Program-made: the position numbers and the translations under genes
Shown: positions 3,090 through 11,997 of the stretch, piece after piece
Layout: every line of letters begins with the position of its first letter
How positions within the stretch are numbered: position 1 is the first letter of the stretch
UHGV virus genome: UHGV-0206544
Strand: one strand, 5' to 3'
From: a virus
DNA length: 45,414 nucleotides
Notes under the pieces: generated by a model
Databases searched by the model: none
What the model was told of the DNA's origin: nothing
What the model saw: the letters and a program-made list of their open reading frames with translations, nothing else

Positions 3090-3918
3090 GCCTGGAGAAA
3101 CGATGAGCATCATCGACCTCAACACAGCAGATATATTCAACGCTATCGGCGGCGGCTCTCCGCTTTCTATCATCGATAGCGTTCTGCATCCTCAGTATGT
3201 GATCCGCAATAGCAAGACCAATGCTGTAGCACTGGAGTTCAGTGGCATGGCATCAATCCAGCCAAGCGGAAGGGCTCAAATAACAAATGCTCCTGTTGAG
3301 GGTGGCAAGTATCAGTCCATCAACAAGGTGAAAGAGCCGTCTGTAATTCGGTGTGAAATCATCGTTACTGGCCTTACCGGATTCTCAGGTAATATTCCCA
3401 ACATTTTCGACCTGACGTTTACCAGCCAGAGCAGTACGCTAGATACCATCAAGACGATGCTGGAAACGGCAAACACCTACGACATCGAGACACCAAAAGA
3501 AACTCTACAGAGCTATGACCTTGTTGATCACTCATACGAAGTGAATTCTCAGCGCGGTGTAAGCATGCTGACTATCTACCTGTACTTTCAGGAAGTGATG
3601 CAGCAAATGGAGGTGATTCTTTCCGGTGCGCAGACAGAAAATAAGCCAACAAACGACAATGTTAGCCAGGGCGTAACTGGAATGGGTGAGGCAACGAAGG
3701 ATGCCGGCTCATCTCCATCGACTTTAGATGAACTGGGTAAATCGTGGTCGTCTCTTAAGACATCGGTAAGCGGAATAGTTACTACGGTGTCAGATACGGT
3801 TACGGCAGGATTTCAGAGCGCACTTGATACGGTGTCGAAGCCAGTTCTTGAAGTTGCAAATAGCGCCACGCAGAAGGCGGCTGATCTCGCCAAAGAGATT
3901 AACGAGAATATCACATGA
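3088..3918 (+). CDS. tail/baseplate-associated protein (hypothetical)
   Basis: 276-aa ORF just downstream of the tape measure gene, translationally coupled (ATGA) to the next ORF. Confidence 0.45.
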   Translation: MPGETMSIIDLNTADIFNAIGGGSPLSIIDSVLHPQYVIRNSKTNAVALEFSGMASIQPSGRAQITNAPVEGGKYQSINKVKEPSVIRCEIIVTGLTGFSGNIPNIFDLTFTSQSSTLDTIKTMLETANTYDIETPKETLQSYDLVDHSYEVNSQRGVSMLTIYLYFQEVMQQMEVILSGAQTENKPTNDNVSQGVTGMGEATKDAGSSPSTLDELGKSWSSLKTSVSGIVTTVSDTVTAGFQSALDTVSKPVLEVANSATQKAADLAKEINENIT

Positions 3919-6114: not shown

Positions 6115-7340
6115 CGACTTTAGAAACTGCTGTACCTGATGTAACCATCACTGAGAATGGCCTGTCCGTCCCAGATATTTCTGATGTTCTTGCGGGTCGC
6201 CTGACAGATATGACAACCGCTCTAGGTGGTGGTGCCAGTCAATCGTTAAGCTCACCACAAGGGCAGATCGCCCAATCTGATACTGAAATCATCGCGCAGG
6301 AGTACGACAAGCTTCTATGCCTGTTTAACCAGGTTAACCCTGATTACTCAACTGGAAGGTTTCAGGATGGGATTGGTCGAATTTACTTCATGGATCGCAT
6401 CTCAGCGCAGGGGACGGTGGTCACTGCAACTTGTATTGGTCAGGTAGGAACAACAATCCCTGCTGGAAGTTCTGCGGTAGACACAAGCGGATATATTTAC
6501 CAGTCAATCGACAACGCGGTAATCCCATCGACTGGATCGGTTGACGTGCAGTTTATTAATACCACTACCGGCCCTATACCATGCGCAGCAGGGGCGCTTA
6601 ACCAGATTTACCGCGCAGTATCTGGATGGGATTCTATAACTAACCTCAGCCCGGGTGTTGTTGGTGTTGATGTTGAATCGCGGATTGCCTTTGAAACACG
6701 CCGCAGACAGTCAGTGGCGAGAAACAGCAGGAATCAGGATGCTTCTACGCTATCTGCGCTTCTTGCTACCAATGGCGTGCTGGATGCTTATGTGTGGTCT
6801 AACAGAACTGCTTCCACAGTAAACCAAGGGACGACAAGTTTTCCTGTTCTTGCCCATTCTATTTACATTTGTGTGTATGGAGGAGCGGATTCTGATGTAG
6901 CAGAGGCGATATTCAACACCTATAACCCTGGTGCCAATCTCAATGGAGATACCACATACACGATTTATGATAACGTAAACTACACCGCACCATATCCCTC
7001 TTATGACATGCAATGGCAGAAAGCCACACCAACGCGAGTCTATTTTAATGTTGAGCTTGATAGTTCTCTTAATCCTCCAAGTGATATCACTCAGCAGGTT
7101 AAAACGATGATCGCATCAGTATTTAATGGTGGTTACGAGGGAATTGGCAAGGCTCGAATCGGGGCGACTATAAACTCCGGAAAGTACTACGCACCAGTAA
7201 TTTCAATCTCTCCCGATACGGTGGGGATTCTTACGCTGGAAGTCTCTCTGGATGGAACTGCGTACGGTCCAGCGGTAACCATGGGAATAGACCAGGTACC
7301 AACCATTCAGGAATCTGACATAACTGTTACATTATCGTAA
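6111..7340 (+). CDS. baseplate J-like protein
   Basis: 409 aa with size and position typical of baseplate J (follows a gpW-like gene, precedes gpI-like and tail fibre genes). Confidence 0.55.
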   Translation: MTTLETAVPDVTITENGLSVPDISDVLAGRLTDMTTALGGGASQSLSSPQGQIAQSDTEIIAQEYDKLLCLFNQVNPDYSTGRFQDGIGRIYFMDRISAQGTVVTATCIGQVGTTIPAGSSAVDTSGYIYQSIDNAVIPSTGSVDVQFINTTTGPIPCAAGALNQIYRAVSGWDSITNLSPGVVGVDVESRIAFETRRRQSVARNSRNQDASTLSALLATNGVLDAYVWSNRTASTVNQGTTSFPVLAHSIYICVYGGADSDVAEAIFNTYNPGANLNGDTTYTIYDNVNYTAPYPSYDMQWQKATPTRVYFNVELDSSLNPPSDITQQVKTMIASVFNGGYEGIGKARIGATINSGKYYAPVISISPDTVGILTLEVSLDGTAYGPAVTMGIDQVPTIQESDITVTLS

Positions 7341-7350
7341 GGGGTGAGGC

Positions 7351-7989
7351 ATGTTGGAAGACACCATTCTTACCCAGTACTCAGCGAGCCAAAAACTATT
7401 ATCCATCATCGATACGTTTAATCAGGCGATAAGCCTTGATGATTTCACAGATGAGTTTATTAACAAAGTATGGGATTTAACTACCTGTGAAACATTCGGT
7501 CTTGATATGTGGGGAAAGATAGTTGGAATCAGCCGCTACATTAACGCACCGATAGAAAGCAGTTCATTCGGCTTCAGTGAAGCTGATGATGCAGATCCAG
7601 ATTACCCTACACCATTCAATGAATCACCTTTCTTTGGTGGTGTTCAGGAAACTACAAACGTCAGGCTTGGAGATGACGCTTACAGAACACTGATATTCTG
7701 TAAAGCATTTACAAACATTAGCATTGCGACAATTCCAGATATAAATAAATTCTTAAAGATTTTGTTTTATCAGCGAGGGAGAGCATATTGTGTAAATTAT
7801 AGAAACATGACAATGGGTATTACATTTGAATTTGAACTTGCTCCATATGAAGAGTCAATTCTAACAAATTATGATGTAACACCAGTACCCAGCGGCGTTC
7901 TTGTTAATATCAGGCAGATTATATCACCGTATTTTGGATTTGCTTCAGATGCATATCCATTCAATGACGGCACATTCTACAGAGACTAA
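7351..7989 (+). CDS. baseplate/tail protein (gpI-like, DUF2612-like position)
   Basis: 212 aa between the J-like gene and the tail fibre gene. The C-terminal third is markedly AT-rich. Confidence 0.45.
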   Translation: MLEDTILTQYSASQKLLSIIDTFNQAISLDDFTDEFINKVWDLTTCETFGLDMWGKIVGISRYINAPIESSSFGFSEADDADPDYPTPFNESPFFGGVQETTNVRLGDDAYRTLIFCKAFTNISIATIPDINKFLKILFYQRGRAYCVNYRNMTMGITFEFELAPYEESILTNYDVTPVPSGVLVNIRQIISPYFGFASDAYPFNDGTFYRD

Positions 7990-7991
7990 AT

Positions 7992-8771
7992 ATGAACCGT
8001 TCAGATTCTCCAGCAAAGCAACCCGTCCCTTTCGGACATAATGGACAAAGAGAGCCAATACTGGCGACCACTCCATCCGGTGATAACACAGCATCTTACG
8101 ACTTAGGCTTCCCACCAATAACAATGACATTAAAGTCAGCGGGCGGCCTACCCCCTAAAGGACAGGATATGAACCAAATCCTGTACGAGCTATCTGCACT
8201 TTCCAGATGGAGCAGCACTAACGCTATAAACAGGTACGATGCAACATTCTCCACCTCAATAGGTGGATACCCACAGGACGCATTGGTACTAGGAGATGAT
8301 GGGATCACTGTATGGAGAAGTAGTAGTAATAATAATACGAACAATCCAAACTCCGTAACAACTGGTTGGGTAAAAGTAGCAGATGATATCTCATCAATTC
8401 TCCAACTAGGAACGGCATCCAAAAGAGATGTTGGAGTAGGAGCAAACCAGATACCTGATATTAGCTACTTTACAAAAAGCACTGCCGGTGGGGCCGCAGT
8501 AATATTCACATTGCCAGGAGGAATGATAATACAGTGTGGAAATATTGGTCCGTTATCAGCCGGGGCCTCCGTTACTGTTACCTATCCAATCCCATTCCCT
8601 TTAGCTATGGGGTTTGTTATTCCCGCAGCGTCTGCATCCGTTGATTCAACCACTCCTGTTGCTCTCGCATTTGACTCTGCCTCAGTTGCTGACTCCAGAA
8701 ATACTGTAATATTTAGAAACTGTTCTACTCGCGGCAACCCTGGAACTCGATATCTTGCTATTGGATACTAA
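7992..8771 (+). CDS. tail fibre protein
   Basis: 259 aa. Conserved N-terminal anchor (GFPPITMTLKSAGGLPPKGQDMNQILYEL) followed by a divergent AT-rich C-terminal domain. Followed by a tail fibre assembly gene. Confidence 0.6.
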   Translation: MNRSDSPAKQPVPFGHNGQREPILATTPSGDNTASYDLGFPPITMTLKSAGGLPPKGQDMNQILYELSALSRWSSTNAINRYDATFSTSIGGYPQDALVLGDDGITVWRSSSNNNTNNPNSVTTGWVKVADDISSILQLGTASKRDVGVGANQIPDISYFTKSTAGGAAVIFTLPGGMIIQCGNIGPLSAGASVTVTYPIPFPLAMGFVIPAASASVDSTTPVALAFDSASVADSRNTVIFRNCSTRGNPGTRYLAIGY

Positions 8772-8774
8772 AGC

Positions 8775-9209
8775 ATGAAAAATTTCATATTCAGTGCGTT
8801 AAACAATGCGTTTTATCCACTTTCACTAAAAAGCCGTTACATAGAAGCAGGTAGTTGGCCTGATGATTGTGTAGAGGTTGATGACGAAGTCTTTCAAAAA
8901 TACACTGGAGAGCCTCCTGCAGGGAAGGTTCGTGGTGTAAAAGATGGACTCCCTTGCTGGATTGACTTGCCGCCACCAACCCAAGAAGAGCTTGAAGCTA
9001 TAAACAAACAAACACAATTCAAATTAAGAGATATTGCAGACTCTGAAATAGCATGGAGGCAGGATGCCGTTGAGTCTGACTTTGCTACAGAAAAGGAAGT
9101 GACTGAGTTATATGAATGGAAAAAATACCGCGTATTGTTGATGCGGATTGATACCAGTGCTGAGCAAACCATAGAATGGCCAACCCCTCCAGAAGCCTCT
9201 ATCCTGTAG
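8775..9209 (+). CDS. tfa: tail fibre assembly protein (Tfa family)
   Basis: 144 aa. N-terminus MKNFIFSALNNAFYP...WPDDCVEVDDEVFQ and C-terminal EAINKQ...WRQ are typical of the Tfa family. Confidence 0.65.
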   Translation: MKNFIFSALNNAFYPLSLKSRYIEAGSWPDDCVEVDDEVFQKYTGEPPAGKVRGVKDGLPCWIDLPPPTQEELEAINKQTQFKLRDIADSEIAWRQDAVESDFATEKEVTELYEWKKYRVLLMRIDTSAEQTIEWPTPPEASIL

Positions 9210-9446
9210 CTAATAGGATTAGCTCAACATGACTAGATAAGTGCGTTTTGCGCTAACGCAATGGCTATGCGTGTGACGTCGATGAATCATAAAACAGTAG
9301 CAACATGCGGCGATATTTGTTGCCTGTGCATGACTCATTGCCTATCATGAGTATGCAGTTGTAAGGTTGCAATTATTGACCACATGTCTAGGTTTTTTAA
9401 TTAAACCATAGCTATCGTCACGATGATACTGAAAACAGGAGAGAGC

Positions 9447-10100
9447 ATGAAGCTGTATGGCATTGTTGGTGCAGGTGGGTATGGAAGAGAAGTCATGCCA
9501 CTTGTACAAGAGGTAATGTTAAAATCTCATCTTTCAGCGGACACGCAATGTGTATTTGTCGTTGAGAATGCCAAAGAAAAAGTGGTTAATGGATTTCCCG
9601 TTTTATCACCAGAAGAATTTTTCGCAATTCCGGCCGATGAAAAGTATTTTAATGTGGCAATTGCAGCCAGCAGGGCAAGAGAAAGGATTTCAACTTTATT
9701 TATAGACAAAGGGATCCTCCCTTTTTCCGTAACTAGTAACCATTCAGTAATTTACAGTACATCAGAAATTGGCGAAGGAGCTATTATTAATCCCTTTGCA
9801 ATTATATCTGCAAATTCAAAAGTCGGCAGATTTTTCCATGCAAACGTATACTCATACATAGCTCACGATTGTATTATAGGGAATTACGTTACATTTGCCC
9901 CTGGTGTAAAATGCTGCGGAAATGTAGTTGTTGAGGACCACGCCTACGTTGGTGCGGGTGCAGTAATCAGACAAAATACAGCAGAACAACCAATTATCAT
10001 TGGCGCAGGAGCGGTAATAGGAATGGGAGCCATTGTCACAAAGAGCGTTCCTGCAGGAATAACTGTTGCTGGAAACCCAGCCAGACCGCTAATAAAATAA
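9447..10100 (+). CDS. hexapeptide-repeat acetyltransferase, NeuD/PglD-like family (moron)
   Basis: Start at ATG 9447 with SD AGGAG. N-terminal MKLYGIVGAGGYGREV (Rossmann-like) and C-terminal left-handed beta-helix hexapeptide repeats (IGEGAIINP...IGNYVTFAPGV...VGAGAVIRQN...IGAGAVIGMGAIV). AT-rich relative to neighbours; a TTGACC-17-AATTAA promoter candidate at 9376-9404. Confidence 0.8.
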   Translation: MKLYGIVGAGGYGREVMPLVQEVMLKSHLSADTQCVFVVENAKEKVVNGFPVLSPEEFFAIPADEKYFNVAIAASRARERISTLFIDKGILPFSVTSNHSVIYSTSEIGEGAIINPFAIISANSKVGRFFHANVYSYIAHDCIIGNYVTFAPGVKCCGNVVVEDHAYVGAGAVIRQNTAEQPIIIGAGAVIGMGAIVTKSVPAGITVAGNPARPLIK

Positions 10101-10208
10101 TCGTAGATGGCGTTAGTTTAAACCATAACTATATTGGTGTGACTATAAGAAAATATAACTGTCTTACAGTAACTTAACTTCTAACCACCAATTAGGACTT
10201 GATAGCGT

Positions 10209-10243
10209 TGACTCAAAAAATGATACTGTAATTATATACAGTA
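10209..10243 (+). promoter_or_regulatory. SOS-regulated promoter: -35 TTGACT, -10 ATTATA embedded in a perfect LexA box TACTGTAATTATATACAGTA
   Basis: CTGT-N8-ACAG palindrome at 10226-10241 with TA flanks. Sits 18 nt upstream of the humD-like start. Confidence 0.6.
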
Positions 10244-10260
10244 TCATAGAGGTGGTTATC

Positions 10261-10650
10261 ATGGGTTTCCCATCCCCAGCAGCGGACTACGTAGAGAGAA
10301 GCATTTCGCTTGACGAAAAATTTGTTGAACATCCAGCATCTACATACTTCATGAGAGCAGGGCAAACATACTGGCGAGAAGGCATCCAGAATGGTGCCTT
10401 GCTGGTCGTGGATAGCTCACTTAAGCCATGTGATGGCTCTCTGCTCGTTTGTAGGATAGATGATGAGTTAAGGATAAAGCGTTACCGCGCCCATCCAAAG
10501 CCTCATTTGGTGAATCTTGAGAACGGCAAGCGTGAAGAGATACCGGGGAAGACTGGAGACTACAATGTGTCATCACCGGTATTCGGGGTGATCACCTACA
10601 TCATCAACGATGCTCGCTCTGGTGAGTTTGATGATTGTCCGGTGATGTGA
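10261..10650 (+). CDS. humD: UmuD'-like protein (P1 HumD-like), naturally lacking the N-terminal cleavable arm
   Basis: Begins MGFPSPAADYVE, the N-terminus of processed UmuD'. It aligns along UmuD' with GQTY in place of GDSM and K retained (RIKRY vs TVKKL). SD AGAGGTGG. Confidence 0.75.
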   Translation: MGFPSPAADYVERSISLDEKFVEHPASTYFMRAGQTYWREGIQNGALLVVDSSLKPCDGSLLVCRIDDELRIKRYRAHPKPHLVNLENGKREEIPGKTGDYNVSSPVFGVITYIINDARSGEFDDCPVM

Positions 10651-10773
10651 GACAAGAATGGGACACACAAAGCTTTGCATCGGTTTGCAAGGCTTTGCAT
10701 GTTTTTAGAAGGTGGGACGTGTGAGCGCTGTTGTGATGGGGTAAGTTATTGTTATCTTAGATAGTCCTAGGAA

Positions 10774-10818
10774 CTTCTAAGCCGTCGGTCACAGGTTCGA
10801 ATCCTGTAGGGGGCGCCA
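10774..10818 (+). other. attP core: 45-nt 3' fragment of tRNA-Arg(UCU), from anticodon loop to CCA
   Basis: CTTCTAAGCCGTCGGTCACAGGTTCGAATCCTGTAGGGGGCGCCA. Anticodon loop, T-arm (ACAGG-TTCGAAT-CCTGT) and acceptor 3' strand plus CCA are present. No matching 5' half upstream. Adjacent to the integrase gene. Confidence 0.6.
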
Positions 10819-10833
10819 TTATAAATCAACGAT

Positions 10834-11997
10834 TTAACCATTTCCGCCAGCCTCCATATTTCCCTCGTGGGACATATTTGGGACATCATCGTTAAAAATC
10901 GAGTCAATTTGCTTCGCATGTTCGGTAAGGTGATTGGGCGCGAGATGAGCATATCGGCGTACCATTTCTATCGATTCCCAGCCACCCATCTCCTGAAGAA
11001 CAGACAACGGTACACCTGACTGAATAAGCCAGCTTGCCCATGTATGTCTGAGGTCGTGAAACCGGAAATCTTCGATACCTGCACGCTTACATGCAGACTT
11101 CCATGCGCGACCATCATCGACTCTCATTTTCCTGACTGCTGGAGTGACAGAACCATCAGGCCTTCTTCCTGCCTTTGTGTGTACGAACACAAATTTATGA
11201 TGATTACCTATCTGGTCACGCAGAACCTTACATGCGGTATCATTCAGCGCTACGCCAATAGCCCTGTTTGATTTGCTGTCTTCCGGGTTAACCCATGCCA
11301 CCCGGCGCTGCATGTCTATCTGTTGCCACTCCAGATTGATGATGTTCGAACGCCTTAAACCTGTTGCCAGCGCAAACTTGACGACAGACTTTAACGGCTC
11401 CGGACATTCATCAATCAGCCTTTTTGCTTCATCCTTCTCCAGCCATCTAACCCGCTTATTGCGCACTGCCGGTATCTTGATGACAGGTGCTTTCTCAAGC
11501 CATTTCCAGTCGCGTTCTGCCGCTCTCAGAATGGCTTTCATCAGTGCAAGATGTTTGGCTTTGGTAGAGGTTGTTACAGACTTAGCAACATAATCCGGGT
11601 CTGGATTTCCTTTCTTCCTTGCTGCTGCCACCTTTGCCTTCCATATCTCCAGATGACTCCGGTTATGCATCCTGCTGACTGCTGAGTAAATCCTTGCCTC
11701 AGTAATATCCTTCAGTCTCACTCCTTCAAATTGCTCAAGCCAGAATCCCATCCGGCCTTTATCTGTATCGAGCGACTTCTTATCTGATTTCTCTTCAATC
11801 CAGCGTAAACACGCCTCCTCAAAAGTCACATCAGGAAAGTCACCGAGTCTGTCTACTCGCCAGAGTTCGGCTTTTCGCTTGTCGTGCAACTCCTGCGCTT
11901 GCCGTTTGTCCGCTGTGCCAAGAGATTCCTTAATTCGCTTCCCGCCCGGGAGCGAGTACGAGGCGTACCATATTTCACCTCTGCGGAAGATGGACAT
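10834..11997 (-). CDS. int: tyrosine site-specific integrase
   Basis: 387 aa. C-terminal catalytic region with [11 protein letters not shown]...VRRYAHL (R..HxxR..Y); N-terminal arm-binding region. Adjacent to the tRNA fragment. Confidence 0.9.

Follow-up and report, generated by a model that had tools for sequence, protein, structure and literature searches.

The locus raises the question of whether a small umuD'-like gene, standing alone at one end of a temperate phage genome, encodes a UmuD' made ready for use, and of what the altered residue at its former active site then means. The gene lies in a stretch of 45,414 bp that was analysed as a whole and is referred to here as the window. It comprises a compact set of elements, all on the plus strand, which run from the promoter to a terminator:

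10208..10213, plus strand: -35 hexamer TTGACT (direct reading and consensus scan)
10224..10243, plus strand: LexA (SOS) box TACTGTAATTATATACAGTA, overlapping the -10 region at 10227-10236 (consensus scan)
10250..10256, plus strand: Shine-Dalgarno sequence GAGGTGG, 4 nt ahead of ATG 10261 (direct sequence reading)
10261..10650, plus strand: humD-like coding sequence of 129 aa, a pre-truncated UmuD' homologue with NCBIfam, Pfam, PHROG, PDB and Foldseek matches
10668..10707, plus strand: hairpin and T-run resembling an intrinsic terminator, beginning 18 nt past the humD stop (consensus scan)

The reading frame opens with the ATG at 10261 and its stop codon ends at 10650. The product starts MGFPSPAADY, has MGFPSPAADYVE and MGFPSPAADYVERSISLDEKFVEHPASTYFMRAGQTYWREGIQNG at its N-terminal side and ends in NDARSGEFDDCPVM. 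A mechanical ORF list had placed the start at GTG 10252, a candidate that is ruled out, as it has no ribosome binding site and the relatives begin MGFPS. The ATG at 10261 is preferred because GAGGTGG serves it and because the M-G-F-P-S start is exact in 120 of the 127 close relatives aligned. Two minus-strand ORFs within humD (10213-10365 and 10421-10576) are unsupported; a comparable minus-strand 'hypothetical protein' is annotated over the humD pseudogene in the record of Salmonella phage BTP1.

Residues M1-G2 of the window protein fall on C24-G25 of UmuD, the site of RecA-stimulated cleavage, in both the HMMER and the MAFFT alignments, which bears out the original prediction that the ORF starts at the N-terminus of RecA-processed UmuD'. 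A single residue precedes the cleavage-site glycine in 120/127 close relatives, and the N-terminal arm is absent. Methionine aminopeptidase removes the initiator methionine when glycine comes next. Since removal of Met1 ahead of Gly2 is expected, the mature window protein should begin GFPSPAADY, the same N-terminus as that of UmuD'.

The protein is assigned to the HumD family by NF051876, the curated NCBIfam equivalog with the name 'HumD family translesion DNA polymerase'. It scores 219.1 bits with this model, for which the cutoff is 120, and its residues 1-129 pair with all 129 positions of the profile. Matches to Peptidase_S24 of Pfam (PF00717; 37.2 bits, cutoff 23.3) and to PHROG 811, 'UmuD-like protein' (4.9e-47), have also been identified. 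Among structures in PDB the best HMMER matches are E. coli UmuD' (1umu, E-value 8.5e-19, aligned end to end with the window protein; also 1i4v and 1ay9) and UmuD bound to the RecA filament (8gmt), with LexA far behind. An AF2 model with diverse representatives in the alignment is of moderate quality (pLDDT 67, core 76-81), adequate for fold assignment and insufficient for active-site geometry; it supersedes a run on a shallow alignment of 65 sequences, all at least 67% identical, that gave a pLDDT of 46. The top Foldseek matches of this model are UmuD' (1umu/1ay9) and UmuD-RecA (8gmt), with target-normalised TM-scores of 0.72-0.76, and they include the C-terminal domains of LexA and lambda cI. 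The S24 beta-fold, on which the original prediction hinged, is conserved in the window protein. Two features of S24 peptidases are absent, namely the serine nucleophile, which is replaced by Thr36, and the scissile Ala/Cys-Gly bond, which is missing because the protein begins at the cleavage-site glycine. The label 'S24 family peptidase' therefore describes the fold and not the function, and the protein should not be classed as an active S24 peptidase. The window gene carries all the features by which the HumD family is recognised at the sequence level and is, on that footing, a HumD orthologue.

Searches of phage genomes with tblastn have revealed homologues that are identical over the full length at 64% (HumD of P1 and P7, and Enterobacter phage vB_Ecl_MII_003), 67% (N15 gp26 and phiKO2 gp23), 69% (HK639) and 71% (HK140). 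A large protein database holds 609 relatives, mostly of 128-129 aa and from Citrobacter, Enterobacter and E. coli, many of which are already labelled 'HumD family translesion DNA polymerase'. HumD of phage P1 (AAQ14073.1), to which the original prediction had compared the gene, likewise has 129 aa, aligns with the window protein over residues 1-129, starts with MGFPSPAADYVE, carries the tail NDARSGEFDDCPV(I/M), has a LexA box 17-19 nt upstream of its start codon and is without a cognate umuC. It differs in having Ser at the nucleophile position (ADSH) where the window protein has Thr (GQTY), and in its setting: P1 humD is part of a plasmid-prophage, beside lxr, hot and phd-doc, whereas the window gene is the last before the attP of an integrating lambdoid/P22-like mosaic myovirus. 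The homologues of N15, phiKO2, HK639 (gp28) and HK140 (gp028) share with the window gene Thr at the nucleophile position and a LexA box before the gene or operon, and they come after the tail-fibre genes, where the lysogeny or partition module begins or ends. Differences within this group include a Met in place of the catalytic Lys in HK639, and an additional small ORF between LexA box and humD in HK140 and one Citrobacter prophage. In phiKO2 (locus 1181-1884) and HK140 (locus 910-1890) a divergent dinI homologue shares the LexA-box region of humD; the window gene has no adjacent dinI. E. coli UmuD' (1umu, 1ay9, 1i4v) shares the S24 beta-fold and, once Met is removed, the GFPSPAADYVE N-terminus, but it is the product of a cleaved 139-aa precursor encoded in an operon with umuC, has the GDSM/Lys97 dyad and is without the 14-residue acidic tail. 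HumD also has a one-residue deletion at Ser57 of UmuD.

A more distant HumD, 37-38% identical and with the tail EFHDNLPF, comes from a contig that resembles a phage-plasmid and also encodes ParA, TacA/T and a DnaB helicase; there, a LexA box TACTGTACATCCATACAGTT (contig locus 3889-3908) lies 112 nt upstream of the gene.

The positions of UmuD that carry the cleavage chemistry correspond to the following codons, in the HMMER alignment to 1umu/8gmt as well as in MAFFT:

10366..10368, plus strand: ACA, codon of Thr36, at the position of the UmuD nucleophile Ser60
10477..10479, plus strand: AAG, codon of Lys73, at the position of the UmuD general base Lys97

The GDSM motif of UmuD thus reads GQTY in the window protein while the Lys is retained, as had been noticed from the sequence. 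The replacement is real. The nucleophile column of the 127 close relatives comprises T in 95, S in 29, A in 2 and M in 1, with Thr in N15, HK140, phiKO2, HK639 and the Enterobacter phage; in the aligned sequences threonine is the majority state of the HumD family and no peculiarity of the window gene. The Lys column reads K in 124, M in 2 and R in 1.

An exhaustive HMMER search covered 1.84 billion representatives of clusters formed at 50% identity, and the complete matches were classified. The Ser and Lys dyad is kept in only 1 of 28 pre-truncated representatives (start M-G-F-P-S) as against 41 of 47 that have the N-terminal arm of true UmuD (Fisher p = 1.5e-13). At the nucleophile position the pre-truncated forms have T, A, S, H, D, L, P, N, I, Y, C or R, and at the base position R, K, C, V, L or Q. 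The free replacement of both residues in distant pre-truncated relatives lends support to the earlier proposal that self-cleavage is dispensable. It supports the view that the chemistry of cleavage decays once a protein is encoded already cut, the dyad being under relaxed constraint because no self-cleavage would be needed.

The close enterobacterial clade shows a different pattern, in which the hydroxyl (T or S, 124/127) and the Lys (124/127) are more conserved than the variable positions that flank them. This conservation is left unaccounted for if the dyad is taken to be wholly without function. It could be thought that Thr36 and Lys73 are still catalytic and that HumD cleaves in trans, for example host UmuD in a heterodimer, an activity that we consider highly improbable. 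The remainder of the GDSM motif is degenerate, with a highly variable Asp59 column and Met61 replaced by His or Tyr in the same 127 relatives; distant pre-truncated relatives carry non-catalytic residues at both positions, and HK639 has Met in place of the Lys. To our knowledge, no S24 enzyme uses Thr as its nucleophile. The simplest reading of the conservation in the clade is a structural role, e.g. a hydrogen bond between Ser/Thr and Lys.

The regulatory region points to SOS control. The LexA box at 10224-10243 is the sole site in the 45,414-bp window with at most 3 mismatches to TACTG(TA)5CAGTA, and such matches occurred in 0 of 100 dinucleotide-preserving shuffles of the window. The box had been called perfect, a description that fits its CTGT-N8-ACAG core; the full 20-mer agrees with the idealised consensus at 18 of 20 positions, and the 2 that differ fall within the central AT spacer. 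Its overlap with the -10 of the TTGACT promoter is confirmed, and the 17-nt spacer with ATTATA given originally is one of two readings, the other being a 16-nt spacer with TGT-AATTAT. The distance from the end of the box to the ATG is 17 nt, and not the 18 nt first stated. A minus-strand terminator-like match at 10247-10220 has been discarded, since it is merely the palindromic LexA box followed by an A-run.

Each of the ten related loci examined (P1, N15, HK140, Ecl_MII_003, phiKO2, HK639, BTP1, two bacterial prophage copies and the phage-plasmid-like metagenome contig) has a LexA box of the form CTG-N10-CAG upstream of humD. The box is in a position equivalent to that in the window in P1, N15, phiKO2, HK639, Ecl_MII_003, BTP1 and the two bacterial prophages, and in HK140 it stands upstream of a two-gene operon that holds humD. 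LexA sites are annotated in the GenBank record of P1, 19 nt ahead of humD, and in that of phiKO2. A predicted SOS-type LexA operator is a trait of the HumD family, in keeping with the description of humD as a LexA-regulated SOS gene (PMC9603915).

At the other end of the gene, the region of phage epsilon34 homologous to the humD terminator is an annotated terminator, and terminators are also annotated behind N15 gene 26 and phiKO2 gene 23. The hairpin at 10668-10697 sits between humD on the plus strand and int on the minus strand, near attP. It could work in either direction, as terminator of humD and, downstream of int, as an element like sib/tI.

The window holds the complete genome of a mosaic temperate phage. 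The early and lysogeny part resembles that of P22 (int, eaA, c2 and genes 18/12, about 78% identity), and nin genes and a tail and head of myovirus type are also present. Tail fibre, tail-fibre assembly, hexapeptide acetyltransferase, humD, attP and int follow one another in this order, so that humD is the last cargo gene before attP, at one end of the prophage:

10766..10820, plus strand: attP core, the 3' part of a tRNA-Arg(TCT)-like sequence, ...CTTCTAAG...GGTTCGAATCCTGTAGGGGGCGCCA
10834-11997, minus strand: integrase, just past attP

No intact tRNA was found in the window by ARAGORN; the tRNA-like stretch at 10766-10815 comprises a 3' portion alone, which is attP. A 62-kb metagenome scaffold is 100% identical to window positions 7261-10820 and divergent after them, position 10820 being the junction of prophage and host. 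Past attP (scaffold locus 3506-3560, equal to window 10766-10820) the scaffold continues into a different integrase of P4 type, from which the attP site appears to hold tandem elements. The identical HumD protein is also encoded on a 45,394-bp Logan contig. A megablast against E. coli genomes matched the integrase side alone, at about 80% identity, and gave no match to humD at that sensitivity.

Equivalent placement of humD is found in HK639, HK140, Ecl_MII_003, BTP1 (after gtr genes), a Citrobacter farmeri prophage and others. The slot between the tail-fibre assembly gene and humD is occupied in the window by a PglD-like hexapeptide acetyltransferase (9423-10100), possibly a lysogenic-conversion gene; the same slot holds the O-antigen-conversion genes gtrABC in BTP1, Ecl_MII_003 and one further locus (L008). 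The DNA that P22 shares with the window begins exactly at the humD stop codon (10642 onward). The humD gene of BTP1 (locus 1501-1873) has become a pseudogene, interrupted in frame by a stop at codon 29 and frameshifted further on, but its LexA box is intact. In mEp234, Sf101, E212 and Stx1/Stx2-converting phages a 3' part of humD (aa 45-128 or 73-128, 53-59% identical) survives without annotation, and many lambdoid and Stx phages have such remnants close to the ends of the genome or to attP. The BTP1 pseudogene and the survival of 3' remnants alone in several lambdoid and Stx phages suggest that the cassette has been lost repeatedly and that humD is readily dispensable.

The gene was originally proposed to be an orphan, and this stands. 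No umuC-like or IMS (Y-family polymerase) gene has been found in the 45-kb window, where Pfam places all ten ORFs of at least 330 aa in other families (tape measure/SLT, baseplate J, integrase, P63C, DnaB helicase, terminase, portal, DUF2213, capsid and sheath). Nor does a Y-family polymerase gene lie beside the homologues in P1, N15, phiKO2, HK140, HK639, Ecl_MII_003 and three bacterial or metagenomic contexts.

We favour, with a probability of roughly 0.8, the explanation that the locus is a self-contained SOS cargo cassette of promoter, LexA operator, ribosome binding site, coding sequence and terminator, which would supply a HumD orthologue, a pre-activated UmuD', to pair with host UmuC. 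It builds on the observed anatomy of the locus, family membership, homology at the level of the fold, the LexA box throughout the family, the absence of umuC from the window and the decay of the dyad in pre-truncated relatives. LexA binding, removal of the methionine, partnership with UmuC and a benefit to the phage are what we infer for the window HumD.

In a lysogen, host LexA bound to the box that overlaps the -10 would keep humD off. DNA damage would activate RecA to RecA*, LexA would be cleaved and humD transcribed; methionine aminopeptidase would then strip Met1 to leave GFPSPAADY, like the RecA-processed protein, and the slow RecA*-dependent step of self-cleavage would be skipped. Early in the SOS response, a HumD dimer could join host UmuC (and RecA) in a translesion polymerase of Pol V type, by which damaged host and phage DNA would be replicated at the cost of mutagenesis. 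In the 1999 study of P1 HumD, good complementation was reportedly obtained only from a high-copy plasmid. The functional part of the explanation is drawn by analogy from P1 HumD: the GenBank record states that it 'functionally complements E. coli UmuD'', PMC9603915 treats humD as an SOS gene, and the title of McLenigan et al. 1999 (J Bacteriol 181:7005; PMID 10559166, PMC94175) describes HumD as a functional UmuD' homologue that aids SOS mutagenesis. This analogy is what points to host UmuC, one of the two partners originally suggested; the other, DinB, found no support.

The structural matches also bear on a second explanation. UmuD/UmuD', LexA and lambda repressor dock on RecA filaments via the same fold, and 8gmt, 8gms and 8gmu are among the structures matched. 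HumD might therefore act mainly on the host SOS system or RecA, by binding RecA* filaments or by forming heterodimers with uncleaved UmuD, rather than as a polymerase subunit. It might in this way adjust recombination, the checkpoint exerted by UmuD2C or, during induction, the rate at which the prophage repressor is cleaved. The divergent humD-dinI pair of phiKO2 and HK140, in which the two genes share a LexA box and dinI encodes a binder of RecA filaments, fits such a role, as does the carriage of humD by temperate phages with RecA*-dependent induction. Against it, the sole experimental statement at hand, that of the P1 record and the title of McLenigan et al., concerns complementation of UmuD' in mutagenesis. 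We regard modulation as the main function as unlikely, and it would be compatible with a part in Pol V. The partnership with host UmuC remains our preferred reading.

At its C-terminal end the protein carries an extension that UmuD lacks:

10606..10647, plus strand: C-terminal extension NDARSGEFDDCPVM (aa 116-129, 14 residues), absent from UmuD/UmuD' and made up of nearly invariant columns in 127 relatives

The window protein ends in EFDDCPVM, for which UmuD, ending in ...HVVKAMR, has no counterpart. The columns of the tail rank among the most conserved of the HumD family in the 127 relatives, and residues 122-129 have a pLDDT below 50 in the AF2 model and are predicted to be disordered. The tail motif has been identified in 9 of 28 pre-truncated as against 0 of 47 arm-bearing representatives (p = 5.5e-5), and distant variants of it read EFDDTPF, EFHDNLPF, EFDAEPFLI, EFDEIPCI and EWDDLPVI. 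The conservation of the tail hints at a partner additional to, or different from, that of UmuD'.

In the flexible tail, acidic residues give way to Pro and a hydrophobic residue where the chain ends, a pattern that resembles the C-terminal tip of SSB (SSB-Ct), for which the motif DDDIPF is given in PMC5872125. The likeness serves as a lead and not as membership, as EFDDCPVM is merely similar to the DFDDDIPF of SSB and the two proteins are unrelated. It raises the idea that the tail mimics SSB-Ct, and either directs HumD or the HumD2-UmuC complex to proteins and sites that recognise SSB-Ct or blocks them. Such mimicry would be in line with the near invariance of the tail, its confinement to pre-truncated forms, its predicted disorder and the closeness of the distant ends EFDDTPF and EFHDNLPF to the SSB motif as quoted there. 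The motif is a short acidic-hydrophobic one, so that the likeness could be a coincidence; the window protein ends in PVM and not in IPF, and the tail could rather stabilise the dimer or touch UmuC or RecA. We consider the mimicry improbable. A broader proposal, that the phage HumDs form a distinct lineage which gave up the dyad and gained an SSB-Ct-like acidic tail, and with it a mode of partner choice or targeting that UmuD' lacks, seems doubtful as well. If true, the tail might dock onto, or block, SSB-Ct-binding replication and repair proteins during the SOS response or prophage induction.

The architecture described here is already known from phage P1 since 1999 and is annotated in N15, phiKO2 and many prophages of Citrobacter and Enterobacter. 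The window gene is an ordinary member of a known and experimentally characterised family, which would not surprise a specialist, and by itself it is of little weight; automatic annotation would give 'HumD family translesion DNA polymerase'. The small additions of the current analysis are the decay of the dyad across the family and the conserved, lineage-specific C-terminal tail. The cassette of LexA box, gene and terminator is a mobile cargo unit, which occurs at the tail-fibre/attP border of temperate phages of myo-, sipho- and podovirus type and in phage-plasmids. The Ser-to-Thr replacement that first drew attention to the gene belongs to a general and statistically clear decay of the dyad, and offers a natural confirmation that the cleavage chemistry serves activation alone.
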